From Mobula hypostoma (lineage: Eukaryota): a stretch of 64,000 bases of DNA. The stretch spans positions 15,748,001 to 15,812,000 of the forward strand of contig NC_086108.1 of assembly GCF_963921235.1 (NCBI RefSeq). The letters run 5' to 3'. Of this stretch, positions 6,130 through 59,299 are shown piece after piece. A model generated the notes under the pieces. It searched no databases and was not told where the DNA came from. It saw only the letters and a program-made list of their open reading frames with translations. Made by a program: the position numbers and the translations under genes. The first letter of the stretch is position 1, and each line of letters starts with the position of its first letter.

Positions 6130-6900
6130 AATGCTTGCTAACCAAATGGACACTTCAGATCTATTTGGAGAAACCATGAGCAAAGTGGGCAACCTTTTTG
6201 CAGAACACCTATGCTCAGTCCTTAGTGGCCTTCCTGAGCTCTCAGTTGCAGACCGTTTCAGTTCCCCTATCCATTACCACACTGACCTGCCCATTTCAGT
6301 CGTCTTTACTGCCAGGATGAAGCCCAGCAACACTTGGGTAGACTATGACCCAGTGACATGAGTATTAAGTTTTCTAATTTTAGGTAATCCTTTTCTAACC
6401 CCCCCCCCCCCCAATCTTCCTCCAGTCCTCTAATTTTGTCCCCTTTTTCCACACCAGTCCCCATTTACCATTCACCCATATTTGTCACTCTCCCCCTCCA
6501 GGTTCCCATCCACTTCACACATAATTTCCTCCCATCCACACAGTCTAAGCATATGTCTGTGATAATATTCTGATTCCCATTCTCACCTTCTTTACTTATC
6601 AAAATCCAACACTGATAACACTTTATGCTCCTGCTTATCTGCCTCCAGCAGCTGTCTCCCATCTTTACAATCTTTCCCCTCATTTGCTCCATTTATTCCT
6701 TTTCCCTATTCCTCTGTCTCTTTATCTGCCTCCATCTAACACTCACCTAGCATTGTTTCCCAACACCACCCCCGCTCACCTCCCCTAACAGTCACCACCT
6801 GCCTGTCCTCTTACACCTCCACTCTACCCACCAATTGCCTTACAATCCTTTTTCACTATTTTCCTTTTCTTTATACTGGCCTTCTCACCTCTCCACTCTC
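6130..6900 (+). mobile_element. Decayed Penelope-like 3' fragment (GIY-YIG region + CT-rich tail)
   Basis: LFGET.SKVGNLFAEHLCSV...LSVADRFSS..H.HTD aligns by eye with YIGETRRRLGDRFAEHLRSV...LPVATHFNS.SHSHSD of the 33913 element; followed by pyrimidine-rich tail. Confidence 0.7.
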
Positions 6901-6902
6901 AT

Positions 6903-7640
6903 GTCATAGAGAAGCACAGCCTAGAAACAGGCTCTTCATCCCATTGAGTCTATGGTGAAACCATTTAAACTGCCTAATCCCATCAACCTGCACCAGGACT
7001 ATAGCCTTCCGTATCCCTACTATCCATGTATCTATCCAAACTTCTCTTAAACGTTGAAATTGAGCTCACATGCTCCACTTGTGTTCGCAACTCATTCCAC
7101 ATTCTCATGACACTCTGAATGAAGAAATTTCCCCTCATGTTCCCCTTAAACTTTTCACCTTTCACCCTTAACCCATGTCCTCTGGTTGTAGTCCTACCCA
7201 AACTCATTGGAATAGTCCTGCTTGCATTTATCCTGTCAATACCCCTCATGATTTTGTATACCTCTATTAAATCACCTCTAAATTTTCTATGTTCTAAGGA
7301 ATAAAGTCCTTACTTATTCAGTCTTTCCTTATAGCTCAGGTTCTCCACCCAGAAACATCCTTGTAAATTTTCTCTATACTCTTCCAATCTTATTCATATT
7401 TTCTCTGTAGGTAGGTGACTAAAACTGCACACAAAACTCCAAATCAGACCTCACCAATGTTTTATACAACTTCAACATAACATCCCATCTCCTGTACTCA
7501 ATACATTGCCAATGTGAAAGCCAATGTGCTTTACGACCCTATCTACCTGTGACACCACATTCAACAAATTGTGGACCTGTACTCCCAGATCCCTTTGTTC
7601 TACCACACTCCTCAGTGCCCTACCATTCACTATGTAAGCC
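6903..7640 (-). mobile_element. 5'-truncated CR1 LINE, apparently inserted in the Penelope tail
   Basis: MRGIDRINASR...TRGHGLRVKG...; CR1 3' UTR at 6903; degenerate Penelope tail resumes ~7645-7770. Confidence 0.85.
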
Positions 7641-7929
7641 TTCCACTGATCTTGATGCAGGTTCCAAAATGAAACATCAACAGTTCCTTCCCCCCTCCCA
7701 TCCTCCCTCAGATGCTGCTCAACTCTCCCAGCTCCAGATTGCAGCATCTGTAATCCTTTGTGTCCCCTCAAATCTGTTTTCCTATCCTGTTCATATTCTC
7801 TTCTGTCTTTCTACTGTGATACCAAATGAGAAGCAAGTTCTACTACTCCAGGTCTTCATTGTGTGTTAGAAAAGTAGGCTGGGATGGTTAGCAGTGTTTG
7901 ATGAAGCAGTGTTTCTTATAGTGACCACT

Positions 7930-17130: not shown

Positions 17131-17424
17131 CTATACTTTCCTCTGATCACCTTAAAATTCTGCCCCCTCATATTAGCCATTTCCACCCTGTGAAAAGGTC
17201 TCTGGCTCTCCAGCTGATCTGTATCACTTTTCATCTTGTACACCTTTATCAAGTTGCCTCTCATCCTCCTTCACTCCAAAGAGAAAAGCCCTAGTTCCTC
17301 AACCTATCCTCAAAAGATATGCCCTCTAATCCAGGCAGCTTTCTGGTAAATCTCCTCTGCACCCTTTCTAAAGCTTCTTCACCACCTTTCTAATGAGGCG
17401 ACCAGAACTGAACACAGTATTGAT

Positions 17425-19014: not shown

Positions 19015-22000
19015 GCATGTCGCAAAGGTAATTCTACGGTTGTTATGGGGGATTTCAACATGCAGGTGGACTGGGAAAAACAGGTTGATAATGGACCCCA
19101 AGAAAGGGAGTTTGTGGAATGCCTCAGCGATGGATTCTTAGAGCAGCTTGTATTAGAGCCTACCAGGGAGAAGGCAATTCTGGATTTAGTGTTGTGTAAA
19201 GAGCCAGATTTGATAAGGGAACTCGAGGTAAAGGATCCATTAGGAGGTAGTGACCATAATATGATAAGTTGTAATCTACAATTTGAGAGGGAGAAGGGAA
19301 GATCGGAAGTGTCAGTATTACAGTTGAACAAAGGGGACCATGGACCCCAGTGTGGCTGGGGTGAAAATAAATGATGTTAAAAGTTCAAGCAAATCCGCTA
19401 ATAGAAAGGTTGTGAGTGGTGGTAAAAATCTTCTGAGGTGTATATATTTCAATGCGAGGAGTATTGCGGGGAAGGCAGATGAGTTGAGGGCGTGGATTGA
19501 CACGTGGAATTATGACGTTATAGCAATTAGTGAAACTTGGCTACAGGAGGGGCAGGACTGGCAGCTTAATATTCCAGGGTTCCAATGTTTCAGATGTGAT
19601 CGAGGCAGAGGAATGAAAGGTGAGGGAGTAGCATTGCTTGTTAGGGAAAATATTACAACAGTTCTCAGGCAGGACAGATTAGAGGGCTTGTCTACTGAGT
19701 CCTTATGGGTGGAGCTGAGAAACAGGAAAAGTATGGCCACATTAGTGGGATTGTATTACAGACCACCTAATAGTCAACGAGAATTGGAAGAGCAAATCTG
19801 CAGAGAGATAGAAGGCAACTGCAGGAAACATAAAGTTGTGGTGGTAGGGGATTTTAATTTTCCATATATTGATTGGGACTCCCATACTGTTAGGGGGTCT
19901 AGATGGTTTAGAGTTTGTAAAATGTGTTCAGGGAAGTTTTCTAAATCAATGTATAGAGGGACCAACTAGAGGGGATGCAATATTGGATCTCCTGTTAGGA
20001 AACGAGTTAGGACAAGTGACAGAAGTCTGTGTAGGGGAGCACTTTGGTTCCAGTGATCATAACACCATTAGTTTCAACTTGATCATGGACAAGGATAGAT
20101 CTGGTCCTAGGGTTGAGGTTCTTAACTGGAAAGGATCTAAAAAGCGTGGATTGGGACAGGTTGTTCTCTGGCAAGGATGTGATCGGTAGGTGGGAAGCCT
20201 TCAAAGGAGAAATTTTGAGAGTGCAGAATTTGTATGTTCCTGTCAGGATTAAAGGCAAAGTGAATAGGAATAAGGAACCTTGGTTCTCAAGGGATATTGC
20301 AACTCTGATAAAGAAGAAGAGGGAGTTGTATGACAGGTATAGGAAGCAGGGAGTAAATAACGTACTTGAGTATAAGAAGTGCAAGAAAATACTTAAGAAA
20401 GAAATCAGGAGGGCTAAAAGAAGACATGAGGTTGCATTGGCAGGCAAAGTGAAGGATAATCCAAAGAGCTTTTACAGGTATATTAAGAGCAAAAGAATTG
20501 TAAGGGATAAAATTGGTCCTCTTGAAGATCAGAGTGGTCGACTATGTGCGGAACCAAAGGAAATGGGGGAGATCTTAAATAGGTTTTTTGCGTCTGTATT
20601 TACTAAGGAAACCGGCATGAAGTCTATGGAATTAAGGGAAACAAGTAGTGAGATCATGGAAACTGTACAGATCGAAAAGGAGGAGGTCCTTGCTGTCTTG
20701 AGGAAAATTAAAGTGGATAAATCCCCGGGACCTGACAGGGTGTTCCCTCGGACCTTGAAGGAGACTAGTGTTGAAATTGCAGGGGCCCTGGCAGAAATAT
20801 TTAAAATGTCGCTGTCTACAGGTGAGGTGCTGGAGGATTGGAGAGTGGCTCATGTTGTCCCGTTGTTTAAAAAAGGATCAAAAAGTAATCCGGGAAATTA
20901 TAAGCCAGTAAATTTAACGTCAGTAGTAAGTAAGTTATTGGAGGGAGTGCTAAGAGACAGAATCTACAAGCATTTGGATACACAGGGACTTATTAGGGAG
21001 AGTCAACATGGCTTTGTGCATGGTAGGTCATGTTTGACCAATCTATTGGAGTTTTTCGAGGAAGTTACCAGGAAAGTGGATGAAGGGAAGGCAGTGGATA
21101 TTGTCTACATGGACTTCAGTAAGGCCTTTGACAAGGTCCCGCATGGGAGGTTAGTTAGGAAAATTCAGTCGCTAGGTATACGTGGAGAGGTGGTAAATTG
21201 GATTAGACGTTGGCTCAATGGAAGAAGCCAAAGAGTGGTAGTAGAGAATTGCTTCTCCAAGTGGAGGCCTGAGACTAGTGGTGTGCCACAGGGATCAGTG
21301 CTAGGTCCATTGTTATTTGTCATCTATATCAATGATTTGGATGATAATGTGGTAAATTGGATCAGCAAATTTGCTGATGATACAAAGATTGGAGGTGTAG
21401 TAGACAGTGAGGAAGGTTTTCAGAGCCTGCAGAGGAACTTGGACCAGCTGGAAAAATGGGCTGATAAATGGCAGATGGAGTTTAATACAGACAAGTGTGA
21501 GGTATTGCACGTTGGAAGGACAAACCAAAGTAGAACATACAGGGTTAATGGTAAGGCACTGAGGAGTGCAGCGTAACAGAGGAATCTGGGAATACAGATA
21601 CAAAATTCCCTAAAAGTAGCGTCACAGGTAGATAGGGTCGTAAAGAGAGCTTTTGGTACATTGGCCTTTATTAATCAAAGTATTGAGTATAAGAGCTGGA
21701 ATGTTATGATGAGGTTGTATAAGGCATTGGTGAGGCCGAATCTGGAGTATTGTGTTCAGTTTTGGTCACCAAATTACAGGAAGGATATAAATAAGATTGA
21801 AAGAGTGCAGAGAAGGTTTACAAGGATGTTGCCGGGACTTGAGAAACTCAGTTATAGAGAAAGGTTGAATAGGTTAGGACTTTATTCCCTGGAGTGTAGA
21901 AGAATGAGGGGAGATTTGATAGAGGTATATAAAATTATGATGGGTATAGATAGAGTGAATGCAAGCAGGCTTTTTCCACTGAGGCAAGGGGAGAAAAAAA

Positions 22001-24458
22001 CCAGAGGACATGGGTTAAGGGTGAGGGGGGAAAAGTGTAAAGGGAACATTGGGGGGGCTACTTCACACAGAGAATGGTGGGAGTATGGAATGAGCTGCCA
22101 GACGAGGTGGTAAATGCGGGTTCTTTTTTAACATTTAAGAATAAATTGGACAGATACATGGATGGGAGGTGTATGGAGAGTTATGGTCCGTGTGCAGGTC
22201 AGTGGGACTAGGCAGAAAATGGTTCGGCACAGCCAAGAAGGGCCAAAAGGCCTGTTTCTGTACTGTAGTTTCTATGGTTTCTATGACCCATGATGGAGGA
22301 GCTGGCCAAAGTTGACTGGAAAGATACCCTAGCAGGGATGACAGTGGAACAACAATGGCAGGTATTTCTGGGAATAATACAGAGGGTGCAGGATCAGTTC
22401 ATTCCAAAGAGGAAGAAAGATTCTAAGGGGAGTAAGGGGCGACCATGGAGGACAAGGGATGTCAAGGACAGAATAAAAATAAAAAAGAGGAAGTACAACA
22501 TAGCAAGGATGTGTGGGAAGCCAGGGGATTGGTAGACTTTTAAGGAGCAACAGAAGATAACTAAAAAGGCAATACGGCGGGGGGGGGGGTGGAAATGAGG
22601 TACGAAGGTAAGCTAGCCAAGAATATAAAGGAGGATAGTAAAAGCTTCTTTAGGTATGTGAAGAGGGAAAAATTAGTTAAGACCAAAGTTGGGCCCTTGA
22701 AGACAGAAATGGGTGAAATTATTATGGGGAACAAGGAAATGGCAGACGAGCTGAACAGGTACTTTGGATCTGTCTTCACTAGGGAAGACACAAACAATCT
22801 CCTAGATGTAATAGTGGCCAGAGGACCTAGGGTAACAGAGGAACTGAAGGAAATTTGCATCAAGCAGAAAATGGTATTGGGACTGAAGGCTGATAAATCC
22901 CCAGGGCCTGATGGTCTGCATCCCAGGGTACTTAAGGAGGTGGCTCAAGAAATCGTGGACGCATTGGTAATCATTTTCCATGTTCTATAGATTCAGGATC
23001 AGTTCCTGTGGATTGGAGGGTAGCTAATGTTATCCCACTTTTTAAAAAAGGAGGGAGAGAGAAAACAGGCAGTTAGTCTGACATCAGTGGTGGGGAAGAT
23101 GCTGGAATCAATTATAAAAGATGAAATAGCGGCATATTTGGATAGCAGTAGCAGGATAGGTCTGAGTCACAAAGGGGAAATCATGCTTGACTAATCTTCT
23201 GGAATTTTTTGAGAATGTAACTATGAAAATGGACATGGGAAAGCCAGTAGATGTAGTGTACCTGGACTTTCAGAAAGCCTTTGATAAGGTCCCACATAGG
23301 AGGTTAGTGGGCAAAATTAGAGCAAATGGTATTGGGGGTAGGGTACTGACATGGATAGAAAATTGGTTGGCAGACAGGAAACAAAGAGTAGGGATTAGTG
23401 GGTCCTTTTCAGAATGGCAGGCAGTGACTAGTGGGGTACCACAAGGCTTGGTGCTGGGACCGCAGCTATTTACAATACACATTAATGATTTAGATGAAGG
23501 GATTAAAAGTAACATTAGCAAATTTGCAGATGACACAGAGCTGGGTGGCAGTGTGAAATGTGAGGAGGATGTTATGAGAATGCAGGGTGACTTGGACAGG
23601 TTGGGTGAGTGGGCAGATGCAGTTTAATGTGGATAAATGTGAGGTTATCCACTTTGGTGGCAAGAACAGGAAGGCAGATGACTATCTCAATGGTGTCAAG
23701 TTAGGAAATGGGGAAATACAACAAGATCTAGGTGTCCTTGTTCATCAGTCACTGAAAGTAAGCATGCAGGTACAGCAGGCAGTGAAGAAAGCTAATGACA
23801 TGTTGGCCTTCATAACAAGGAAAGTTGAGTATAGGAGCAAAGAGGTCCTTCTGCAGTTGTATAGGGCCCTGGTGAGACCACACCTGGAGTATTGTGTACA
23901 GTTTTGGTCTCCAAATTTGAGGAAGGACATTCTAGCTATTGAGGGAGTGCAGCATAGGTTCACGAGGTTAATTCCCAGGATGGCGGGACTGTCATATGTT
24001 GAACGATTGGAGCGACTGGGCTTGTATACACTGGAATTTAGAAGGATGAGAGGGGATCTGATTGAAACATATAAGATTATTAAGGGATTGGACACGCTAG
24101 AGGCAGGAAGCATGTTCCCCGATGTTGGGGGAGTCCAGAACCAGAGGCCACAGTTTAAGAATAAGGGGTAGACTATTTAGAACAGAATTGAGGAAAAACT
24201 TTTTCACACAGGGGGGTTGTGGTCCTGTGGAATGCTCTGCTTCAGAAGGCAGAGGAGGCCAATTCTCTGGATTCTTTCAAGAAAGAGTTAGATAGAGCTC
24301 TTAAAGATAGCAGAGTCAAGGGATATGGGGAGAAGGCAGGAAAAGGGTACTGATTGTGGATGATCAGCCATGATCACAGTGAATGGCGGTGCTGGCTCGA
24401 AGGGCTGAATGGCCTACTCCTGAACCTATCGTCTATCGTCTATCGTCTATTGTCTATT
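19015..24458 (+). mobile_element. CR1 LINE (segments 19015-19347 and 22285-24458) split by a nested CR1
   Basis: EN motifs GDFN/SDH, reading continues LNKGD..|MEELAKVDW; (TATCGTC/TATTGTC)n tail; candidate TSD GAGTG 19010-19014/24459-24463. Confidence 0.92.
19348..22284 (+). mobile_element. CR1 LINE with near-complete ORF2 (few lesions)
   Basis: CIYFNARSI...SETWL, 487-aa RT fragment with FADD; ttctatggtttctat tail; candidate TSD GACCC 19343-19347/22285-22289. Confidence 0.95.
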
Positions 24459-24994: not shown

Positions 24995-25705
24995 ACTTCA
25001 CCTGTGAGTCGGCTGGGGTGATATACTGCGTCCGGTGCTCCCGATGCAGCCTTCTATATATTGGCAAGACCCAACGCAGGCTGGGAGACCATTTTGCTGA
25101 ACACCTAAGCTCTGTCCGCCAGAGAAAGCAGGATCTCCCAGTGGCCACACATTTTAATTCCACGTCCTATTCCCATTCTGATATGTCTATCCACGGCCTC
25201 CTCTACTGTCAAGATGAAGCCACACTCAGGCTGGAGGAACAACACCTTATATTCCACCTGGGTAGCCTCCAACCTGATGGCATGAACATTGACTTCTCAA
25301 ACTTCCGCTAGTGCCTCACCTCCCCCTCGTACCCCATCCGTTATTTATTTATATACACACATTCTTTCTCTCTCCCTCCTTTTTCTCCCTCTGTCCCTCT
25401 CACTATACCCCTTGCCCATCCTCTGGGTTCCCCCCCCCCTCCCTTTTCTTTCTCCCTAGGCCTCCTGTCCCATGATCCTCTCATATCCCTTTTGCCAATC
25501 ACCTGTCCAGCTCTTGGCTCCATCCCTCCCCCTCCTGTCTTCTCGTATCATTTCAGATCTCCCCTCCCCCTCTCACTTTCAAATCTCTTACTAGCTCTTC
25601 TTTCAGTTAGTCCTGACGAAGGGTCTCAGCCAGAAACGTTGACTGTACCTCTTCCTAGAGATGTTGCCTGGCCTGCTGCGTTCACCAGCAACCTCTATGT
25701 GTGTT
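24995..25705 (+). mobile_element. 5'-truncated Penelope-like element (GIY-YIG C-terminus + 3' tail)
   Basis: GVIYCVRCSRCSLLYIGKT...GMNIDFSNFR*, near-identical to 34942-35650. Confidence 0.93.
25604..25645 (+). ncRNA. Hammerhead ribozyme motif (type I, minimal) in Penelope tail
   Basis: agtc-CTGACGA-a-gg..cc-a-GAAA-cg-TT-gact; stem II imperfect in this copy. Confidence 0.65.
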
Positions 25706-26610
25706 TCTTATTATAGCACTTAGCTTCAAATCCAGTCAACATCTTGGTTAACCTCTTCTGTGCCCTCTGCAATGCCTCAGCACCCTTCCTATGATGGGAC
25801 AACCAGAACTGTATGTAATACCAAATGACCTAGCTAGAGCTTTATAAAGCTACAACATAAATTCCTGACTTGTGTACTCATTGTCTGAACTAATAAAGGC
25901 AGGTATGCCATATGCCTTCTTAACCACCCGATCAGCCTCTGTAGCCACTTTCAAGGGGCTATGAACTTGGTCCCCAAGATCCCTCTGCTTATTAACACTG
26001 TTAAGGGGCTTGCCGTTAACTGTGTATTGTCTCTTTACATTTGATTTACCAAGGTGCAACTTTATGTTTGGTCAGGCTAAGCTCCATCTGCATTTCTCCA
26101 CCTGTATCTGCAACTGATCTATAACCCACTGTATTCTTTGCCAGTTATTCATATACATCACAAACAGAAGAGGTCCCAGTACAGATCCCTGCAGAGCACC
26201 ACTAATCGCAGATCTCCAGCTAGAATAAGTACCTTCAACCACTAACCTCTGTCTTTGATGGGCAAGCCAGTTCTGAATCCAAATGGCCAATTCACCATGG
26301 ATCGCATGCATCATAATCTCCTGGATAAGACTCCTATGAGGGATCTTGTCAAATGCCTTACCAAAATCTCCATAGATATCGACAGCTCTACCTTCAGTCA
26401 CCCTTGTCATCTCATCAAAAAACTCAGTAAAGTTAGTAAGACATGGCTTGCCCCGTACTAAGCCGAGCTGGTTCTACTTAATTAGGCCATGTCTTTCCAA
26501 ATGCTCATAAAGTCCTAACCCTGAGAATTCTCTCCAGTAACTTTCCTACCACTGGCGTGAGACTTAGCAGTCTGTAGTTTCCAGAATTATGCCTGTTCCT
26601 TCCTAAGTAA

Positions 26611-28773
26611 CTGGCCAAAGTTGACTGGAAAGGGACACTGGTGGGAAAAACAGCAGAGCAGCAGTGGCTGGAGTTTATGCGAGAAATGAGGAATGTGCAA
26701 GACAGGTATATTCCAAAAAAGAAGAAATTTTTGAGTGGAAAAAGGATGCAACCATGGTTGACAAGAGAAGTCAAAGCCAAAGCAAAGGAGAGGGCATACA
26801 AGGAAGCAAAAATTAGTGGGAAGACAGAGGATTGGGAAGTTTTTAAAACCTTACAAAAGGAAACCAAGAAGGTCATTAAGAGAGAAAAGATTAACTATGA
26901 AAGGAAGCTAGCAAATAATATCAAAGAGGATACTAAAAGCTTTTTCAAGTATATAAAGAGTAAAAGACAGGTGAGAGTAGATATAGGACTGATAGAAAAT
27001 GATGCTGGAGAAATTGTAATGGGAGATAAGGAGATGGCAGAGGAACTGAACGAGTATTTTGCATCAGTCTTCACTGAGGAAGACATCAGCAGTATACCGG
27101 ACACTCTAGGGTGGCAGGGAAGAGAAGTGTGCGCAGTCACAATTACGACAGAGAAAGTACTCAGGAAGCTGAATAGTCTAAAGGTAGATAAATCTCCTGG
27201 ACCAGATGGAATGCACCCTCGTGTGCTGAAGGAAGTAGCTGTGGAGATTGCGGCAGCATTAGCGATGATCTTTCAAAAGTCGATAGATTCTGGCATGGTT
27301 CCAGAAGACTGGAAGATTGCAAATGTCACTCTGCTATTTAAGAAGGGGGCAAGGAAGCAAAAAGGAAATTATAGACCTGTTAGCTTGACATCGGTGGTTG
27401 GGAAGTTGTTGGAGTTGATTGTCAAGGATGAGGTTACAGAGTACCTGGAGGCATATGACAAGATAGGCAGAACTCAGCATGGATTCCTTAAAGGAAAATC
27501 CTGCCTGACAAACCTATTACAATTTTTTGAGGAAATTACCGGTAAGCTAGACAAGGGAGATGAAGTGGATGTTGTATATTTGGATTTTCAGAAGGCCTTT
27601 GACAAGGTGACACACATGATGCTACTTAACAAGATAAGAGCCCATGGAATTACGGGAAAGTTACATACGTGGATAGAGCGTTGGCTGATTGGCAGGAAAC
27701 AGAGAGTGGGAATAAAGGGATCCTATTCTGGTTGGCTGTCGGTTACCAGTGGTGTTCCACAGGGATCAGTGTTGGGGCCGCTTCTTTTTACATTGTACAT
27801 CAACGATTTGGATTATGGAATAGATGGCTTTGTGGCTAAGTTTGCTGACGATACGAAGATAGGTGGAGGGGCCAGTAGTGCTGAGGAAATGGAGAGTCTG
27901 CAGAGAGACTTGGATAGATTGGAAGAATGGGCAGAGAAGTAGCAAATGACGTACAATGTTGGAAAGTGTATGGTTATGCACTTTGGTAGAAAAAATAAAC
28001 GGGCAGTCTATTATTTAAATGGGGAAAGAATTCAAAGTTCTGAGATGCAATGGGACTTGGGAGTCCTCGGACAGGATACCCTTAAAGCTAACCTCCAGGT
28101 TGAGTCAGTAGTGAAGAAGGCGAATGCAATGTTGGCATTCATTTCTATAGGAATAGAGTATAGGAGCAGGGATGTGATGTTGAGGCTCTATAAGGCACTG
28201 GTGAGACCTCACTTGGAGTACTGTGGGCAGTTTTGGTCTCCTTATTTAAGAAAGGATGTGCTGATATTGGAGGGGGTACAGGGAAGATTCACTAGAATGA
28301 TTCCGGGAATGAGAGGGTTAACATATGAGGAACGTTTGTCCGCTCTTGGACTGTATTCCTTGGAGTTTAGAAGAATGAGGGGAGACCTCATAGAAACATT
28401 TTGAATGTTAAAAGGCATGGACAGAGTGGATGTGGCAAAGTTGTTTCCCATGATGGGGGAGTCTAGTACGAGAGGGCATGACTTAAGGATTGAAGGGCGC
28501 CCATTCAGAACAGAAATGTGAAGAAATATTTTTAGTCAGAGGGTGGTGAATCTATGGAATTTGTTGCCATGGGCAGCAGTGGAGGCCAAGTCATTGGGTG
28601 TATTGAAGGCAGAGATTGATAGGTATCTGAGTAGCCAGGGCATCAAAGGTTATGGTGAGAAGGCGGGGGAGTGGGACTAAATAGGAGAATGGATCAGCTC
28701 ATGATAAAATGGCGGAGCAGACTCAATGGGCCGAATGGCCTACTTCTGCTCCTTTGTCTTATGGTCTTATGGT
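26611..28773 (+). mobile_element. 5'-truncated CR1 LINE
   Basis: 433-aa RT fragment; (TTATGGTC)n tail; 8-bp TSD CTAAGTAA 26603-26610/28774-28781. Confidence 0.96.
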
Positions 28774-30014: not shown

Positions 30015-33000
30015 AAGGAGGAGGTCCTGCAAAGAGAATTCAGGAAGTTAGGTGCAAAGTTGAAGGACAGGACCTCCAGGGTTGCAATCTCAGGATTGCT
30101 ACCCATGCCACATGCGAGTGAGGCTAGAAATAAGAAGATAATGCAGCTAAGTACATGGCTAAGGAGTTGGTACAGGAGGGAGGGCTTCATGTTTCTGGAC
30201 AATTGGGCCTTGTTCCAGGGAAGATGGGTCCTATTCCAACGGGATGGGTTGCACCTGAACTGGAGGGGGACTAACATCCTTGCGGGAAAGTTTGCTAGTG
30301 CTGCTCCGGGGGTTTAAACTAGATTTGGAGGGGGAGGGGAATCAGAGTGTTAGAGCAGATAGTGAGGTGGAGGAGGATAAAGGTCATGTGAGAACTGCAA
30401 GTATAGTGCATGGAGTAAAGCCAGATCTAACATATAAAGAGGCTTTGAGGAAAGAGAAACAGAATAAAGGGTGTAAAGGTAGTAAGGTAGAAAGGCTAAA
30501 GTGCGTCTACTTCAATGCAAGAAGCATCAGGAACAAAGGTGATGAACTGAGAGCTTGGATACGTACATGGAATTATGATGTAGTGGCAATTACAGAGACT
30601 TGGCTGGCACAAGGGCAGGAATGGATTCTCAATATTCCTGGATTTCAGTGCTTTAAAAGGGATAAGGGAGGGGGAAGGGGAGGAGGGGAGGCGTTACTGG
30701 TCAGGGATACTATTACAGCTACAGAAAGGGTGGATAATGTAGCAGGATCCTCTTTGAGTCAGTATGGGTGGAAGTCAGGAATAGGAAGGAAGCATTTACT
30801 CTATTGGGAGGCAGATTTTGGAAAGGTGCAAAAATAACAGGGTTGTTATAATGGGTGACTTTTGACTTCCCTAATATTGACTGGCACCTGATTAATTCCA
30901 GTGGTTTAGACGGGGCAGAGTTTGTTAAGTGTGTCCAGGACGGATTCCTGTCACAGTATGTTGACAGGCCGACTAGGGCGAATGCCATACTAGATCTAGT
31001 ATTAGTAATGAATCGGGTCAGGTCACAGATCTCTCAGTGGGTGAGCATCTGGGGGACAGTGACCACTGCTCCCTGGCCTTTAACATTATTATGGAAAAGA
31101 ATAGGATCAGAGAGGACAGGAAAATTTTTAATTGGGGAAGGGCAAATTGTGAGGCCATAAGGTTAGAAATTGCGGGTGTGAATTGGGATGATGTTTTTGT
31201 AGGGAAATGTACTTTGCAGATGTGGTCGATGTTTAGGGATTTCTTGCAGGATGTTGGGGATAAATTTGTCCTGGTGAAGAAGATAAAGGATGGTAGGGTG
31301 AAGGAACCATGGGTGACAAGTGAGGTGGAGAATCTAGTCAGGTGGAAGAAGGCAGATACATGAGGTTTAGGAAGCAAGGATCAGATAGGTCTATTGAGGA
31401 ATATAGGGTAGCAAGAAAGGAGCTTAAGAAGGGGCTGAAGAGAGCAAGAAGGGGGCATGAGAAGGCCTTGGTGAGTAGGGTAAAGGAAAACCCCAAGGCA
31501 TTCTTCAATTATGTGAAGAAAAAAAGGATGACAGGAGTGAAGGTAGGACCGATTAGAGATAAAGATGGAAAGATGTGCCTGGAGGCTGTGGAAGTGAGCG
31601 AGGTCCTCAATGAATACTTCTCTTCGGTATTCACCAATGAGAGGGAACGTGATGGTGAGGACAATATGAGTGAGGTTGATGTTCTGGAATATATTGATAT
31701 TAAGGGAGAGGAGGTGTTGGAGTTGTTAAAATACATTAGGACGGATAAGTGACCAGGGCCTGACGGAATATTCCCCAGGCTGCTCCACGAGGTGAGGGAA
31801 GAGAGTGCTGAGCCTCTGGGTAGGATCTTTATGTCCTGGTTGTCCACGGGAATGGTACCGGAGGATTGGAGAGAGGTGAATGTTGTCCCCTTGTTCAAAA
31901 AAGGTAGTAGGGATAGTCCGGGTAATTATAGACCAGTGGGCCTTATGTCTGTGGTGGGAAAGCTGTTGGAAAAGATCCTTAGAGATGGGATCTGTGGGCA
32001 TTTAGAGAATCATGGTCTGATCAGGGACAGTCAGCATGGCTTTGTGAAGGGCAGATCGTGTCTAACAAGCCTGATAGAGTTCTTTGAGGAGGCGACCAGG
32101 CATATAGATGAAGGTAGTGCAGTGGATATGATCTGCATGGATTTTAGTAAGGCATTTGACAAGGTTCCACACAGTAGGCTTATTCAGAAGCCGGAAGGCA
32201 TGGGATCCAGGGATGTTTGGCCAGGTGGATTCAGAATTGGCTTGCCTGCAGAAAGCCGAGGGTCGTGGTGGAGGGAGTACATTCTGATTGGAGGGTTGTG
32301 ACTAGTGGTGTCCCACAAGGATCAGTTCTGGGACCTCTACTTTTCATGATTTTTATTAACGTCCTGGATGTGGGGATAGAAGGGTGGGTTGGCAAGTTTG
32401 CAGACGACAGAAAGGTTGGTGGTGTTGTGGATAGTGTAGAGGATTGTCGAAGATTGCAGAGAGACATTGATAAGATGCAGAAATGGGCTGAGAAGTGGCA
32501 GATGGAGTTCAACCCAGAGAAGTGTGAGGTGATACACTTTGGAAGGACAAACTTCAAGGCAGAGTACAAAGTCAATGGCAGGATACTTGGTAGTGTGGAG
32601 GAGCAGAGGGATCTGGGGGTACATGTTCACAGATCCCTGAAAGTTGCCTCACAGGTAGATAGGGTAGTTAAGAAAACTTATGGGGTGTTAGCTTTCATAA
32701 GTCGAGGGACAGAGTTTAAGAGTCGCGGGGTAATGATGCAGCTCTATAAAACTCTGGTTAGGCCACACTGGAGTACTGTGTCCAGTTCTAGTCGCCTCAC
32801 TATAGGAAGGATGTGGAAGCATTGGAAAGGGTATAGAGGAGATTTACCAGGATGCTGCCTGGTTTAGAGAGTATGCATTATGATCAGAGATTAAAGGAGC
32901 TAGGGCTTTACTCTCTGGAGAGAAGAAGGATGAGAGGAGACATGATAGAGGTATACAAGATATTAAGAGGAATAGATAGAGTGGACAGCCAGCGCCTCTT

Positions 33001-33198: not shown

Positions 33199-33912
33199 CT
33201 AGTATCTTTCCCGTAATATCATGGGCTCTTAAACAGACTCATGTGCAGTATCTTGTCAAAGGCCTTCTGAAAATTCTGCTTATTATTTCCTTAAAGAATT
33301 CAAGCAGTTTTGTGAGGCAAGATATCGCCGTAAGGAAACTGTACTGTCTTTGGCCTATTTTATCGTGTGTCTCCAAATACCCCGAAATCTCATCCTTAAT
33401 AATGCAATCCAACATCAACTGAAGTCAGACTAACTGGCATATAATTTTCTTTTCTTTGGCCTCCCACCTTTTCAAAGATATTTGTGATTTTCCAGTCCTC
33501 CAGAACCATTCCAGAATCTTGTGATACTTGAAAAATCATTACTAATGCCTCAAGCAATTTCTTCAACTACTCTTTCAGAACCTTGGGGTGTAGTCCATCT
33601 GGTTCATGTGACTTACCTACCTTCAGACCTTTCAGCTTCCCGAGCACATTCTCCTTCGTAATAGAAACTACATTTACTTCATCTCCCTGACGCTCACGAA
33701 TTTCTGGCATACTGCTAGTGTCTTCCACAGTGAAGACTGATACAAACTACTTATTTAATTCATTCATCTTTTCTGTAGTCCCCTATTACTACTTGTCCAG
33801 CATCATTTTCCAGCAGTCCAATAGCCACTTTCTCCTCTCTTTTGCTCTTAATATATCAGAAAAAACTTCTGGTATCCTTTTTTCATATTATTGGCTAGCC
33901 TACCTTCATATT

Positions 33913-35258
33913 CCTTATATACTTCCATCCCCCATCAGGAAGGTCTCAAAGCTCTACGCTTCTTTTTGGATTCCAGACCTAATCAGTTCCCCTCTACCAC
34001 CACTCTGCTCCGTCTAGCGGAATTAGTCCTTACTCTTAATAATTTCTCCTTTTGCTCCTCCCATTTCCTCCAAACTAAAGGTGTAGCTATGGGCACCCGT
34101 ATGGGTCCTAGCTATGCCTGCCTTTTTGTTGGGTTTGTGGAACAATCTATGTTCCGTGCCTATTCTGGTATCTGTCCCCTACTTATCCTTCGCTACATCG
34201 ACGACTGCATTGGCGCTGCTTCCTGCACGCATGCAGAACTCGTTGACTTTATTAACTTTGCCTCCAACTTTCACCCTGCCCTCAAGTTTACCTGGTCCAT
34301 TTCCGACACCTCCCTCCCCTTTCTAGATCTTTCTGTCTCTGTCTCTGGAGACAGCTTATCCACTGATGTCTACTATAAGCCTACTGACTCTCACAGCTAT
34401 CTGGACTATTCCTCTTCTCACCCTGTCTCTTTCAAAAACGCCATCCCCTTCTCGCAATTCCTCCGTCTCCGCCGCATCTGCTCTCAGGATGAGGCTTTTC
34501 ATTCTAGGACGAGGGAGATGTCTTCATTTTTTAAAGAAAGGGGCTTCCCTTCCTCCACTATCAACTCTGCTCTTAAACGCATCTCCCCCATTTCACGTAC
34601 ATCTGCTCTTACTCCATCCTCCCATCACCCCACTAGGAATAGGGTTCCCCTGGTCCTCACCTACCACCCCACCAGCCTCCGGGTCCAACATATTATTCTC
34701 CGTAACTTCCGCCACCTCCAACGGGATCCCACCACTAAGCACATCTTTCCCTCCCCCCTCTCTGCATTCCGCAGGGATCGCTCCCTACACAACTCCCTTG
34801 TCCATTCGTCCCCCCCATCCCTCCCCACTGATCTCCCTCCTGGCACTTATCCGTGTAAGCGGAACAAGTGCTACACATGCCCTTACGCTTCCTCCCTTAC
34901 CACCATTCAGGGCCCCAAACAGTCCTTCCAGGTGAGGCATCACTTCACCTGTGAGTTGACTGGGGTGATATACTGCGTCCGGTGCTCCCGATGTGGCCTT
35001 TTATATATTGGTGAGACCCGACGCAGACTGGGAGACCGCTTTGCTGAACATCTACGCTCTGTCCGCCAGAGAAAGCAGGATCTCCCAGTGGCCACACATT
35101 TTAATTCCACATCCCATTCCCATTCTGACATGTCTATCCACGGCCTCCTCTACTGTAAAGGTGAAGCCACACTCAGGTTGGAGGAACAACACCTTATATT
35201 CCGTCTGGGTAGCCTCCAACCTGATGGCATGAACATTGACTTCTCTAACTTCCGCTAG
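33913..35258 (+). CDS. Penelope-like RT + GIY-YIG endonuclease, open frame without native start
   Basis: SLYTSIP, QTKGVAMGT, RYIDD, LPFLD, YYKPT, Cys motifs, GVIY...YIGET; first codons of the called ORF (33891) lie in flanking CR1/TSD. Confidence 0.92.
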
Positions 35259-35545
35259 GCCCCACCTCCCCCTCGTACCCCATCTGTTACTCATTTTTAT
35301 GCACACATTCTTTCTCTCACTCTCCTTTTTCTCCCTCTGTCCCTCTGAATATACCTCTTGCCCATTCTCTGGGTCACCCCCCCCCGTCTTTCTTCCCGGA
35401 CCTCCTGTCCCATGATCCTCTCGTATCCCCTTTTGCCTATCACCTGTCCAGCTCTCGGCTCTATCCCTCCCCCTCCTGTCTTCTCCTATCATTTTGCATC
35501 TCCCCCTCCCCCTCCAGCTTTCAAATCCCTTACTCACTCTTCCTT

Positions 35546-35587
35546 CAGTTAGTCCTGACGAAGGGTCTCGGCCTGAAATGTCGACTG
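35546..35587 (+). ncRNA. Hammerhead ribozyme motif (type I, minimal)
   Basis: agtc-CTGACGA-agg(gtctcgg)cct-GAAA-tg-TC-gact: catalytic boxes, stem I agtc/gact, stem II agg/cct. Confidence 0.72.
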
Positions 35588-36719
35588 CGCCTCTTCCTAT
35601 AGATGCTGCTTGGCCTGCTGCGTTCACCAGCAACTTTGATGTGTGTTGCTTGAATTTCCAGCATCTGCAGAATTCCTGTTGTCTACCTTCATATTTAATC
35701 TTTTCTCAACTTATGCCTTATTTTAGTACCCTTTTGATAGTTTTTAAAAGCTTCCCACTAATTTTTGCTATATGATATGTCCTTTTTGCTTTTATGCTGT
35801 CTTTGACTTCTCTTATCAGCCTCAGTTGCTTCATCCTTCCTCTAGAATACTTTTTCATCTTTCGGATGAACCTATCCTTCACCTTCAAGCCATTCTGGTT
35901 TGCCGTCGTCCCAGCTAGTTGGTCCTTCATCAATTTTGGCTTCCTCCTCTTCATGTCTCTGTAATTCCAGTTGCCCCACTGCAATATTGATGCATCTGAT
36001 TTTTGCTTCTCCCTCTCAAATTGCAGGATGAAACTATCATATTATGATCACTGTCTCCTTGAGGTTCCTTTGCCTTATGTTCCCTAATGAAATCTGGTTC
36101 ATTCCACAACACCCAATCCAGGATTGCCTTTGCCCCTAGTCTGCTCAACCACAAATTACTCTAAGTAGTCATCTCGTAGGGATTCTACAAATTCCATCTC
36201 TTGTGGATCTAGCACCAGCCTAATTTTCCCAATCTACCTGCATATTGAAGTCTCCCATGACTATCGTAACATTGCCTTTTTTACATGCCTTTTCTATCAT
36301 TGTAATTTGTATTCTACGTCCTGGCTACTTTTCAGAGGCCTCTGTGTAACTCCTGTCAGGGTCTTTTTACTCTTACAGTTTCTTAACAAGGATTCTACAT
36401 CTTCTAATTCTATATCACCTCTTTCTAAGGATTTGAGTTCACTTTTTACCAACAGTGCCACATCCCTCTGCCTACCTGCCTGTCCTTTTGATACAATATG
36501 TATGCTTGGATATTAAGCTCCCAACTGTAATCTTCTGTCAGCCACAACTCGTGCCCACAACAGCATACCAGCCAATCTCTAACTGTGCTACAAGATTATC
36601 TAGCTTATTCTGTATACTGCGTGCATTCAGATATAACACCTTCAGTCCTGTATTCATCACCCTTTTTGATTTTGCTCCCATGTTATACTTCAACTCATCC
36701 CACTGAGTGCAATTTTGCC

Positions 36720-41025: not shown

Positions 41026-42780
41026 TATGTGAAGAACCAAAGGATGAAAGAAGCGAAGGTAGGACCAATTAGAGATAAAGGTGGGAAGATGTGCTTGGAG
41101 GCTGTGGAAGTGAGCGAGGTCTTCAATGAATACTTCTCTTTGGTATTCACCAATGAGAGGGAACTTGATGACGGTGAGGACAATATGAGTGAGGTTGATA
41201 TTCTGGAACATGTTGATATTAAGGGAGAGGAGGTGTTGGAGTTGTTAAAATACATTAGGACGGATAAGTCCCCGGGGCCTGACGGAATATTCCCCAGGCT
41301 GATCCACGAGGCGAGGGAAGAGATTGCTGAGCCTCTGGCAAGGATCTTTATGTTCTTTGATGTTCATGGGAATGGTACCGGAGGATTGGAGGGAGGCGAA
41401 TGTTGTTGCATTGTTCAAAAAAGGTAATAGGGATAGTCCGGGTAATTATAGACCAGTGAGCCTTACGTCTGTGGTGGGAAAGCTGTTGGAAAAGATTCTT
41501 AGAGATAGGATCTATGAGCATTTAGAGAATCATGGTCTGATCAGGGACAGTCAGCATGGCTTTGTGAAGGGCAGATTGTGTCTAACAAGCCTGATAGAGT
41601 TCTTTGAGGAGGTGACCAGGCATATAGATGAGGGTGGTGTAGTGGATGTGATCTACATGGATTTTAGTAAGGCATTTGACAAGGTTCCACACGGTAGGCT
41701 TATTCAGAAAATCGGAAGGCATGGGATCCAGGGAAGTTTGGCCAGGTGGATTCAGAAATTGGCTTGCCTGCAAAAGGCAGAGGGTTGTGGTGGAGGGAGT
41801 ACATTCAGATTGGAGGGTCGTGACTAGTGGTGTCCCACAAGGATCTGTTCTGGGGCCCCTACTTTTCGTGATTTTTATTGACGACCTGGATGTAGGGGTA
41901 GAAGGGTGGGTTGGCAAGTTTGCAGACGACAGAAAGGTTGGTGGTGTGTGGATAGTGTAGAGGATTGTCGAAGATTGCTGAGAGACATTGATAAGATGCA
42001 GAAGTGGGCTGAGAAGTGGCAGATGGAGTTCAACCCAGAGAAGTGTGAGGTGATACACTTTGGAAGGACAAACTTCAAGGCAGAGTACAAAGTAAATGGC
42101 AGGATACTTGGTAGTGTGGAGGAGCAGAGGGATCTGGGGGTACATGTCCACAGATCCCTGAAAGTTGCCTCACAGGTAGATAGGGTAGTTAAGAAAGCTT
42201 ATGGGGTGTTAGCTTTCATAAGTCGAGGGATAGAGTTTAAGAGTCGCGATGTAATGATGCAGCTCTATAAAACTCTGGTTAGGGCACACTTGGAGTACTG
42301 TGTCCAGTTCTGGTCGCCTCACTATAGGAAGGATGTGGAAGCATTGGAAAGGGTACAGAGGAGACCTGGTTTAGAGAGTATGGATTATGATCAGAGATTA
42401 AGGGAGCTCGGGCTTTACTCTTTGGAGAGAAGGATGATGAGAGGAGACATGATAGAGGTATACAAGATATTAAGAGGAATAGATAGAGTGGATAGCCAGC
42501 ACCTCTTCCCCAGGGCACCACTGCTCAATACAAGAGGACGTGGCTTTAAGGTAAGGGGTGGGAAGTTCAAGGGGGATATTAGGGGAAGGTTTTTTACTCA
42601 GAGTGGTTGATGCCTGAGTCAGTGGCGGAGGCAGATACATTAGTGAAACTTAAGAGACTACTAGACAGGTATATGGAGGAATTTAAGGTGGGGGGTTATA
42701 TGGGAGGCAGGGTTTGAAGGTCAGCACAACATTGTGGGCTGAAGGGCCTGTACTGTGCTGTACTATTCTATGTTCTATGT
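41026..42780 (+). mobile_element. 5'-truncated CR1, same subfamily as 30015-33198
   Basis: Near-identical to 31507-33198; ttctatgttctatgt tail. Confidence 0.95.
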
Positions 42781-45700
42781 AATACTTGATATAAAAACCA
42801 TCCATGTAGATTGTGTACTTGGATTGGCCCTGGAGATAGAACAAGGAATCAAATAGATTTCATTACCATCAATGAACGCTTTGGAAATAATATCACGAAT
42901 TCTAAAGCTTACCCAGGAGCAGACTGTGGTTCAGATCACCATCCAGTAATAGCTACCATTAAAGCAAAATTAAAGAAACTGAAACGTGGAAAAAAGAGAA
43001 AGAAATATATGTTCGACACTAGACACTAGAATACTACAGCATAGTACAGGCCCTTTGGCCCGCAATGTTGTGCCAACCCATATATTCCTTAAAAAAAAGT
43101 ACAAACCCACACTACCCCGTAACCCTCTATTTTTCTTTCATCCATGTGCCTGTCCAAGAGACTCTTAAATACCCCTAATGTTTTAGTCTCCACAACCATC
43201 CTTGGCAAGTCATTCCAGGCACGTACAACTGTCTGTGTAAAAAAACTTACCCCTTACCCCTGATGTCTCCCCTAAACATCCCTCCCTTAACTTTGTACAT
43301 ATGCCCTCTGCTGTTTTCTATTCGTGCCCTGGGAAACAGGTACTGGCTATCCATCCTATCTATGCCTCTCATAATCTTGTAGACCTCTATCAAGTCCCCT
43401 CTCATCCTTCTACGCTCCAAAGAGAAAAGTCCCAGCTCTGCTAACCTTGCCTCATAAGACTTATTTTCCAATGCAGGCAACATCCTGATAAATTTCCACT
43501 GTACCCTCTCCATAGCTTCCACATCCTTCCTATAATGAGGTGACCAGAACTGAACACAATACTCGAAGTGTGGTCTCCCCAGAGATTTGTAGAGTTGCAA
43601 CATGACCTCTCTACTCTTGAACTCAGTCCCCCTATTAATGAAGCCTAGCATCCATAGGCCTTCTTAACTATCCTATCAGCCTGTGCAGTGACCTTGAGGG
43701 ATGTATGGATTTGAACCTCAAGGTCCCTCTGTTCATCCACACCCTTAAGTAACCAACCATTAACCCTGTACTCAGCCTTCTGGTTTGTCCTTCCAAAATG
43801 CATCACCTTACACTTATCCAGATTGAACTCCATCTGCCACTTTTCTGCCCAACTCTGCATCCTGTCTATATCCTCTTGTAACCTTCGACAACCTACAGCT
43901 CCATCCACAACTCCTCCAATCTTCGTGTCATCTGCAAACTTACTCACCCATCCTTCCACCTCTTCATCCACGTCATTCATAAAAATCACAAAGAGCAGGG
44001 ATCCCAGAACAGATCCTTGTCGCACTTCACTAGTCACTGACCTCCAGGCAGAATACTTTCCTTCCACTACTACCCTCTGCTTTCTTCCTGTAAGCCAATT
44101 TTTTATCCAAACAGCCAAGGTTCCACTGATACCATGTCTCATGACTTTCTGGATGAGTCTCTCATGGGGGACCTTGTCAAGTGCCTTGCTAAAATCCATG
44201 TAGAGCACATCTACCGCCCTACCCTCATCAATTTCTTTTGTTACCTCTTCAAAAAACTCAATTAGGCTCGTGAGGCCCAACCTACCCTTCATAAAGCCAT
44301 GTTGACTATCCTTGAGTAGACTGTACTTGCAGACCACTGACGTAAGACTCACCAGCCTAAAGTTCCCAGGATTCTCGCTATTACCTTTTTTAAACAAGGG
44401 AACTACATTTGCCATTTTCCAGTCCTCCGGCACCTCCCCTGCAACCAAAGAGGATTCAAAGATCATAGCTGCTGCTCCAGTGATCTCTCATTTCCCACAG
44501 CAACCTGGGGTATATCACGTCTGGCCTTGGGGACTGATCAATCTTGATGTTTTTAAGAAGATCCAACACTTCTTCTTCCTTAATCTCCACATTGTCCAGC
44601 ACACAGACCAGTTCTGTTTCGACCTCACCCTGATCAAGGTCTTTTTCACTTGTGAATACTGAAGCAAAGTATTAATTTAGGACCTCCTCAACCTCCTCCG
44701 CCTCCAGGCCATGTTGCCTTCTTTATCCTTTAGCGGCCCCACCTTCATTCTTGTCATCCTTCTGTTCTTCACATACGCATAGAACACCTTGGGGTTTTCC
44801 TTAATCCTACATGCCAAGGCCTTCTCATGTCCCCTTCGAGCTCTCCTAAGTCCTTTCGTAAGCTCCTTCCTGGCTACCCTATATTTCTCATGAGCCCCTC
44901 CTGCTCCCTGCTTCTTAAATCTAACATATGCTTCCTTCTTCCTCTTGGCGAGATGCCTCACATGTTTTGTCAGCCACAGTTCTCTTTTCCTACCATTTTT
45001 CCTTGTCTCAGTGGGACAAACCTATCCTAAACCCAGCACAAGTGGTCCCTAAACTTCCTCCACATTACTTCTTTGCTTTCACCCTTGAACATCTGTTTCC
45101 AATTTACTGTCACTAGTTCCTGCCTCATCCCTTCATAGTTAGCCCTTCCCCAGTTAAGCACTTTCCCATTTTTTCTGTTTTTATCCTTTTCCATAGCTAT
45201 GCTGAAGCTAAGGGAGTTGTGGTCATTCTCACCAAAATGCTCCCCCACCAAGAGGTCTGCCACCTGACCAGGTTCATTACCCAGAACTAGATCCAGTATG
45301 GCCTCTCCTCTCATCGGCCAGTCCACATCAGGAATCCTTCTTGAACACACCTGACAAATTCAGCCCCATCTATCCCCCTTGAAGTCAGGAGGTGCCAGTC
45401 ATTATGAGGGAAGTTGAAATCACCCATAACTACAACCCTGTATTTCCTGCACCATTCTAAAATCTGCCTGCTTATCTGCTCCTCGGTGTCCCGAGGGCTA
45501 TTTGGGGGCCTATAGACTACTCCCAGCACAGTGATTGATCCTTTCCTATATCTGACTTCCACCCACACCGACTCAGTGGACACTCCCTCTGCAGCTTCCT
45601 CCCTTTCTATAGGCGTGATACTATCCCTGACCAGTAATGCTACTCCCCCCGCCTTTTCTACCTCTCATTCTATTCCTTTTAAAACACCTAAACCCCGGTA

Positions 45701-56125: not shown

Positions 56126-56306
56126 CACAAACAAGAGAAAATGTGAAGATGCTAGAAATCTGAGCAACACACATAAAAACACGGGGGAATTCAGCAGTTT
56201 TTTCTCCAGTCCTGCCGAAGGGTTTCAGCCTGACACATCGACTGTACAGCTTTTTCCATAGATGCTGCCTGGCCTGCTGATTTCCTCCAGCATTTTGTGT
56301 GTGTTG
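56126..56306 (+). mobile_element. Penelope-tail insertion with inverted 5' segment; hammerhead core mutated
   Basis: 14-bp TSD ATCCCATCTCCTGT 56112-56125/56307-56320; 56126-56195 is antisense tail end, remainder sense. Confidence 0.88.
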
Positions 56307-57250: not shown

Positions 57251-57427
57251 AAAAAAAAACGCAAACAACAGGAATTCTGCAGATGCTGGAAATTCAAGCA
57301 ACACACATAAAAGTTGCTGGTGAACGCAGTAGGCCAGGCAGCATCTCTAGGAAGAGGTGCAGTTGACGTTTCAGGCCGAGACCCTTCGTCAGGACTAACT
57401 GAAAGAAGAGTGAGTAAGGGATTTGAA
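57251..57427 (-). mobile_element. Penelope-tail insertion with intact hammerhead core
   Basis: 11-bp TSD ATTGTCAGGTC 57240-57250/57428-57438; minus strand agtc-CTGACGA-agggtctcggcct-GAAA-cg-TC-aact. Confidence 0.92.
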
Positions 57428-57648
57428 ATTGTCAGGTCCTAGGGATTTATCCACCCTGAAATGCTGCCAGGTAGCAAATACCTCCTCCTCTATTATCTCT
57501 GCAAGCTCCATGAAATTGATGCTGCTTTGCCTCACTTCTATAGATTCCATATCCATCTCCTGGGTAAATACAGATTCAAAGAATTCATTTAAGATCTCCC
57601 TTATCCATTTTGGCTTCACATATGGATTACCATTCTGGTCTTCCAGAG

Positions 57649-58426: not shown

Positions 58427-58560
58427 TTCCAGAGGACCAATTTTGCCCTGCAATCCTTTTGCTCTTAACATATCTGCAGAATCCCTTAGGATTCTCCTTT
58501 ACCTTGGCTGCTAGGATAACTTCATGCCTTATTTTAGCCCTCCTGATTTCTTTCTTAAGT

Positions 58561-58672
58561 AACAAACACAAAATGCTGGAGGAACTCAGCTGGCTAGGCA
58601 GCATCTATGGAAAAGAGTACAGTCGACATCTCGGGCAGAGACCCTTCATCAGGACTGAAGGGTCCTGGCCTA
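58561..58672 (-). mobile_element. Penelope-tail insertion with short inverted segment
   Basis: Minus agtcCTGATGAagggtctctgcccGAGAtgtcgact; plus-strand tgaagggtcctggcct stub; candidate TSD TAAGT 58556-58560/58673-58677. Confidence 0.82.
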
Positions 58673-59164: not shown

Positions 59165-59299
59165 CCTGACGAAGGGTCTCGGCCCGAAACGTCGACTCTA
59201 CCTCTTCCTAGAGATGCTGCCTGGCCTGCTGCGTTCACCAGCAACTTTTATGTGTGTTGCTTGAAATCCCAGCATCTGCAGATTTCCTCGTGTTTGCGT
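59165..59299 (+). mobile_element. Penelope-tail insertion beginning at the hammerhead core
   Basis: cCTGACGAagggtctcggcccGAAAcgTCgact ... gtttgcgt; no TSD seen. Confidence 0.88.

Follow-up and report, generated by a model that had tools for sequence, protein, structure and literature searches.

The window analysed here, a 64,000-nucleotide stretch of the Mobula hypostoma genome, contains a 5'-truncated Penelope-like element (PLE) that splits a LINE fragment, the two sides of which match 895-1511 and 1495-1838. As listed in Table 1, the remaining coding sequence, an untranslated stretch, a hammerhead motif and a tail follow one another on the plus strand between the two copies of a target-site duplication. 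The stop-to-stop frame runs from 33852 to 35258, its start at 33852 lying in the flank of the element. The motifs YIDD, LYIGET and CxxC..H..H were found in the frame (P0001 and its alignment), and the linker cysteines C335-x4-C340-x2-C343 were invariant or nearly so in 27 aligned proteins. The Pfam GIY-YIG model matched the frame with an E value of 0.00068 and a score of 20.3, below the cut-off of 22.6. The frame has 973 homologs, the best named of which come from rays (77-93% identity), with sharks also represented. The RT and GIY-YIG motifs, the homologs and the linker and CCHH residues together bear out the preliminary description of this DNA, in which the host of the motif was taken to be a Penelope-like element. 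The element likely belongs to the Neptune clade, an assignment made by motif with a linker that fits Neptune or Nematis; the accessible part of a preprint lists Neptune and Poseidon, not Nematis, in the animals sampled.

Several ray gene models among the homologs contain PLE pieces, and two of the proteins, P0013 and P0023, have C-terminal extensions past the usual stop that, judged from their letters, seem to translate their own hammerhead sequence. The window is also rich in LINE-type RT/endonuclease frames (14390-17146 (-), 19328-22113, 26611-28404, 30259-32867, 41303-42610, 43645-44487 (-), 51303-52177 and 61648-63434), which we take to be CR1-like and one of which is uninterrupted by stops over 917 aa. 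Neither a full-length nor a tandem copy of the element was found in the window, and none of the window frames scanned was recognised as part of a host gene.

Table 1. Coordinates of the focal element, its hammerhead motif and related insertions in the window
Feature	Position	Strand	Remarks
13-bp target-site duplication, left copy	33900..33912	+	
5'-truncated Penelope-like element, Neptune-type by motif	33913..35682	+	inside LINE fragment
Open frame: RT C-terminal part (YIDD), linker C-x4-CxxC, GIY-YIG with CCHH	33913..35258	+	
C/T-rich untranslated stretch	35259..35550	+	stop codon to hammerhead
Stem I, 5' strand AGTC	35551-35554	+	direct reading
Core box CTGACGA	35555-35561	+	direct reading
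Extra A	35562	+	direct reading
Stem II, GGGT / GCCT	35563-35566 / 35571-35574	+	4 bp, loop CTCG; direct reading
GAAA, then TG, T and C17	35575-35578; C17 = 35582	+	direct reading
Stem I, 3' strand GACT	35583-35586	+	direct reading
Optional tail at 3' end, ~31-37 nt	35652..35682	+	in 3 of 6 copies; tail concept as given in the accessible text of PMC11167929
13-bp target-site duplication, right copy	35683..35695	+	
Second truncated copy: GIY-YIG end, UTR, hammerhead	24995..25709	+	hammerhead 25609-25644; no tail
pLTR-only copy with tail	57258..57428	-	11-bp target duplication; hammerhead 57396-57361
pLTR-only copy with tail	59165..59293	+	start inside stem I
pLTR-only copy, second subfamily	58555..58658	-	no tail
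Single insertion: inverted tail piece, then tail-less pLTR copy	56126..56306	+	tail piece 56131-56197 (minus strand); pLTR copy 56208-56306
Older PLE remnant: GIY-YIG end, C-rich UTR, intervening piece, hammerhead trace	6167..7760	+	GIY-YIG end 6167-6385; intervening piece ~6904-7635; trace ~7650

Direct reading of the sequence places a minimal type-I hammerhead, which has no helix III, at 35551..35586 (+), ~290 nt 3' of the stop codon of the RT/GIY-YIG frame and on the sense strand. Helix I is closed in type-I fashion by AGTC/GACT, and cleavage is predicted after C35582. The focal copy has a G10.1-U11.1 wobble, and its palindrome ACGT has decayed to ATGT. The two boxes alone were not enriched, with 10 matches in the window versus 6.77 expected and counts as high in 15 of 100 shuffles. 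The whole 36-letter pattern gave 4 window matches versus 0 expected, these copies being one repeat family and hence not independent. The Rfam hammerhead models had no match at E<=1 anywhere in the window, and no relative was seen among 34 pattern matches in viral contigs. Because box counts, Rfam and fold energies (see below) are all unremarkable, the case for the motif rests on its context and on covariation.

Alignment identified six copies in the window, with C3 at 25613(+), 35555(+), 57392(-), 59166(+), 58652(-) and 56212(+), and a covariance model trained on 19 motifs, including four from the window, returned six window matches at E<0.001, which were exactly the six aligned copies. Alignment and model thus confirm the claim of at least six hammerhead copies. 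The boxes and stems of the pattern from which that claim was drawn also stand, but the pattern omitted one base before GAAA, namely position 11.1, which is T in three of the six copies, A in one and C in two. G10.1-C11.1 is present in two of the six, and G-U in the focal copy. The palindrome ACGT, said to stand in place of stem III, is retained in three of the six copies (25613, 57392 and 59166) but not in the focal one. In copy 59166, which had been offered as the example of a cut site, C17 was correctly placed at 59193, but the 5' strand of stem I is mostly lost (TGAC for AGTC), the copy beginning inside stem I; its core and stem II are canonical (G-C). For the very decayed trace reported near 7650, the covariance model gave no match, although the trace does sit after an old, decayed GIY-YIG remnant (6167-6385, 46% identity), the UTR of which is interrupted by a piece of ~730 bp. 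We infer that the pieces at 6167..7760 belong to one element, and the trace is likely the pLTR of an older PLE family because it follows a decayed GIY-YIG end and a C-rich stretch.

Damage was found somewhere in every one of the six window copies. The core (CUGANGA, GAAA and NN-UH) is intact in four, including the focal copy, and altered in copy 58652 (A14 to G, giving GAGA for GAAA) and copy 56212 (A6 and A14 to C, giving CTGCCGA and GACA). Stem I is broken in copies 57392, where its first pair is mismatched, and 59166, and copy 25613 has a G-A mismatch at 10.1/11.1 and a U at position 17. A strict descriptor matched only one of the six window copies since the other five are damaged. Core changes of such kinds abolish hammerhead cleavage, and no intact partner hammerhead lies near any copy in the window; the six copies are likely inert insertion fossils.

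We compared the motif across related elements, using metagenome loci that were chosen solely for their protein similarity (the best 80 of 528). Forty-nine of these 80 were eligible, in that they reached the end of the ORF and at least 300 nt beyond, and 31 were dropped (25 without the C-terminus and 6 with short downstream DNA). A search of the 800 nt that follow the ORF with the strict descriptor gave sense-strand matches in 10 of the 49 eligible loci, no match on the antisense strand and none in 50 shuffles. With core boxes and position as the only filter, 14 loci were retained, which together with the focal copy gave 11 distinct motifs. Of the 88 stem cells in these 11 motifs, 82 are paired, compared with a mean of 52.7 and a maximum of 67 over 5000 shuffles, and two of the motifs have a U3-A8 core swap. 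The extra unpaired A was present in 15 of 15 motifs, and G10.1-C11.1 in 14 of 14 related motifs.

Further, in a 19-row motif alignment picked by eye from the related-locus matches, 88.8% of the cells are paired (96% in helix II), and all four helix I pairs have two-sided changes across the 19 motifs. The covariation score of 0.838, compared with 0.229 for shuffled alignments, was reached in none of 500 shuffles, and slid controls gave 0.168 or less. Stems I and II therefore covary across related families (0.838 versus 0.229). In 23 of the 49 eligible loci (from the best 80 of 528; counted by hand), the covariance model placed the motif no more than 450 nt past the ORF match, with none on the antisense strand there. 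Eleven of these 23 lie outside the training set, and two loci, L013 and L015, look like duplicates. In the remaining 26 of the 49 related loci, mostly in the group at 29-35% identity, the model found no motif near the ORF end. Comparison of these sequences indicates that the hammerhead motif is under selection between lineages.

A different picture is presented by the copies within the family. We aligned contigs to 35440-35700, using 97,952 pieces from run X1, from which the window itself may derive, and 7,686 from run X9; the latter is a presumed RNA run that was used as contigs and shows neither transcription nor RNA ends. Among the variable sites listed for X1, which do not count every difference, all nine that lie within the motif are at CpGs. 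At the catalytic G8, A makes up 6.1% of X1 depth, compared with 7.1-10.5% for four other G's in CpG context; at C17, T makes up 7.9% of depth. The inserted copies thus look to be decaying about neutrally, by CpG loss. An excess of core conservation among genomic copies was proposed in the preliminary description as a test of the motif; the signal is present between lineages only, and because inserted copies decay about neutrally, core conservation among them is unfit as a test. The core boxes and ACGU are nevertheless the majority letters in the family, and the palindrome ACGT is its majority form (C at 35579 in 79% of X1 and 94% of X9). Position 11.1 (35574) is U in 79% (X1) and 82% (X9) of depth, shares that may lean towards the query's letter. 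Since no matching G>A is listed at the base next to 11.1, U11.1 looks like a change fixed in the parent lineage rather than CpG decay. G10.1-U11.1 still pairs, and U11.1 might alternatively pair with the extra A.

Next we examined the ends of the insertions. Target duplications flank three of the six copies and measure 13 bp (focal), 11 bp (57392) and 14 bp (56212); the last flanks the insertion at 56126..56306 (window 56112-56320). When random position pairs were used as a control, 0 of 300 reached 13 bp and 5 of 300 reached 10 bp. No target duplication of at least 7 bp was found at copies 25613, 58652 and 59166 or at the piece inside the old remnant, and no microsatellite target preference was evident at the three target duplications. 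ATT, the triplet preferred in vitro by the endonuclease of an Anolis PLE according to the accessible text of PMC11167929, occurs at one end of two of the three target duplications (33900-33912 and 57240-57250), too few to test.

The preliminary description had also held that self-cleavage defines the transcript ends of this family, which is unsupported for the inserted DNA. All six window copies span the predicted cut and end either ~69 nt past it (25709, 58555 and 56306) or ~100-106 nt past it (35682, 57258 and 59293), and the cut is the starting point of none of the seven tail matches in the window. When ten copies from a distant family were sorted by eye, they fell into two similar groups: five end ~60-65 nt and five ~105-118 nt past the cut. 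At the other end, the start of four of the six window copies (59165, 58658, 56208 and 57428) lies upstream of the core box by no more than ~40 nt, and in three cases by no more than ~10 nt. Loose contig ends cluster at 35551-35552 and 35587, which are the borders of stem I; a second subfamily diverges at these borders, and 215 X1 contigs that match from 35552 onwards have long, dissimilar flanks before it.

One related locus, L040, is a near full-length young PLE with its ORF split over two frames. It carries two direct 376-bp pLTRs (1207-1581 and 4630-5005) that are 98.7% identical and 3.4 kb apart; each pLTR has a hammerhead with the U3-A8 core and extends past the cut on both sides.

Folding calculations did not discriminate. 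Monomer folding energies of four copies were unremarkable (z -0.04 to -1.02), in three of the four monomers the predicted fold, which would be inactive, pairs the core-box letters GACG with the strand that holds the cut site, and predicted homodimers did not clearly form the catalytic arrangement. The hammerhead core is given no score in such energy models, and folding energy and homodimer co-folding were set aside as evidence. Published work, as far as the accessible text of each source extends, has addressed cleavage in such elements. The motif of a schistosome PLE gave no monomer cleavage and low dimer cleavage (PMC4209133), a review gives a dimer model of PLE hammerhead cleavage (PMC6765202), and Xenopus dimers were cleaved in one of nine cases (bioRxiv 10.64898/2026.07.22.740005). 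In the Anolis PLE PAc, hammerhead cleavage needed the element's protein, hammerhead mutants were without effect on insertion, the cut coincided with neither the start nor the end of any RNA-seq read, and uncut RNA was the main substrate (accessible text of PMC11167929). The PAc tail, to which the two end classes of the window copies correspond, was traced to two internal reverse-transcription start sites (Frangieh et al. 2024, PMC11167929, same portion).

Taken together, the results make it highly probable that the pLTR of a Penelope-like element, likely of the Neptune clade, here carries a minimal type-I hammerhead, one that would cut only with help in the active parent and whose window copies are likely inert fossils. 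In the active parent element, the RNA would be cut after GUC only together with a second copy, by pairing of the ACGU palindromes, or with the element's protein. That protein would nick DNA and then prime reverse transcription of uncut (or re-joined) RNA from one or other of two internal sites, both lying 3' of the hammerhead. Reverse transcription would pass through the hammerhead and usually stop early, and such early stops would leave short copies with or without the tail, which later decay by CpG loss. Cleavage would then be a side or late step in the handling of tandem precursor RNA and would not set the insertion ends. DNA nicking, two-site internal priming and the early stop are steps that we infer.

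That cleavage instead defines the mobile RNA, with tandem transcripts cut at successive hammerheads into unit-length RNAs that are maybe circularised and serve as template, was proposed in PMC4209133 (accessible text) and seems to us doubtful for this family. None of the six window copies starts or ends at the cut, and linear cut RNA is excluded as the template for them; among the best 12 of 580 loose ends, none lies at the cut, and the Anolis element mainly uses uncut RNA, with no reads ending there (see above). A re-joined circle, however, would also yield copies that span the cut, and both the conservation of stems and core across families and the two direct pLTRs of L040, with a hammerhead in each, agree with this proposal. 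The hammerhead could also be vestigial as a catalyst in the ray lineage, weakened by G-U at 10.1/11.1 and by a fold that hides the core, its sequence being kept as a promoter, protein-binding or structural signal. The high depth share of U11.1, which looks like a parent-lineage change, the predicted folds that bury the core and the PLE clades that still multiply without hammerheads (accessible text of PMC8557442) are consistent with such a loss. We nonetheless consider it unlikely: the G-U still pairs or may be replaced by pairing with the extra A, the majority letters still spell the core boxes and ACGU, two of the six window copies are G-C, and the depth shares of U11.1 may lean towards the query. 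A further reading, distinctly improbable in our view, is that of a hugely amplified ray Penelope lineage with a switched-off hammerhead, in which G-U is fixed and the core would pair over the cut site until protein or a partner RNA opens it; the many dispersed copies, which bear the palindrome, could then pair in trans in host pre-mRNAs and cut them, and the starts of short copies would mark the start of the element RNA. If this were true, the lineage would serve as a natural experiment on why PLEs retain a ribozyme unneeded for insertion.

It is very improbable that the copies represent a non-LTR retrozyme or satellite, that is, tandem hammerhead repeats making circular RNAs. The pLTRs of PLEs gave rise to retrozymes, which were detected in the sole chondrichthyan sampled (bioRxiv 10.64898/2026.07.22.740005, accessible part), and four of the six window copies consist of the pLTR only. 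However, the copies are dispersed and single, three have target duplications, two are joined to ORF sequence, and self-comparison of the window revealed no tandem array; we rejected this reading for the window on the grounds of dispersed single insertions and no array. The probability that a very common repeat resembles a hammerhead by chance here is practically negligible. Boxes that are not enriched, silent Rfam models and ordinary fold energies would suit chance, whereas the same position, strand and architecture, together with compensatory changes, recur in elements ~35-52% identical in protein. The chance reading was rejected because the strict descriptor matched 10 of 49 loci versus none in shuffles and because stem pairing and covariation exceeded all shuffles. 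Overall, a hammerhead that would be cut only with help in the parent element, and that would not set the ends of its insertions, remains the preferred reading.

The hammerhead class itself is already published, Neptune elements of fishes included: min-HHRs in pLTRs of metazoan PLEs, among them Xena, Poseidon and Neptune of fishes, were described in 2014 (Cervera and De la Pena 2014, PMC4209133; accessible text). No cartilaginous fish is named in the accessible text of that paper, five shark or skate terms had no match in two of its three supplementary files, and a literature search found no description of the ray family, some supplements being beyond its reach. The value of the family is modest and lies in the material it offers for the question of what the PLE hammerhead is for. 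Because its copy number is very high, ends can be mapped relative to the cut, and the naturally occurring variants with U11.1 and with C11.1 lend themselves to comparison in cleavage assays on a Neptune-type element; judged from the accessible text of PMC11167929, PLE hammerhead biochemistry so far covers only a Poseidon element.

Compared with the min-HHR of PLEs as set out in the accessible parts of PMC4209133, the ray motif is alike in its type-I topology, core boxes, helix I of 4-5 bp, unpaired base between 9 and 10.1, lack of helix III, palindromic 15.2-16.2, place in the pLTR and occurrence mostly as single dispersed copies from truncated elements. The ray family differs in that helix II is only 4 bp and in that its majority form is G10.1-U11.1, whereas G-C is highly conserved in that paper, as a typical trait outside the descriptor used there. 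Animal non-LTR retrozymes, according to the accessible part of bioRxiv 10.64898/2026.07.22.740005, likewise have a type-I hammerhead in sequence derived from a PLE pLTR, but they form tandem arrays, unlike the dispersed single insertions in the window. The likeness to Anolis carolinensis Poseidon PAc (PMC11167929, as accessible) lies in a pLTR hammerhead upstream of two end points 30-40 nt apart and in insertions that span the cut. PAc, however, belongs to the Penelope/Poseidon clade and has its ORF start within the hammerhead, whereas the ray element has the Neptune/Nematis linker and an ORF start outside the window; further, cleavage of PAc was measured and needs protein, whereas the ray family is known here from its sequence. 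Finally, in the portion of Craig et al. 2021 (PMC8557442) that describes the clades, Neptune shares with the ray element an RT, a CX2-5CxxC linker that is also found in Nematis, a GIY-YIG domain with CCHH, a hammerhead near the 3' end, an optional tail of 30-40 nt and inverted truncated pieces at the 5' side, represented here by the piece at 56131-56197.
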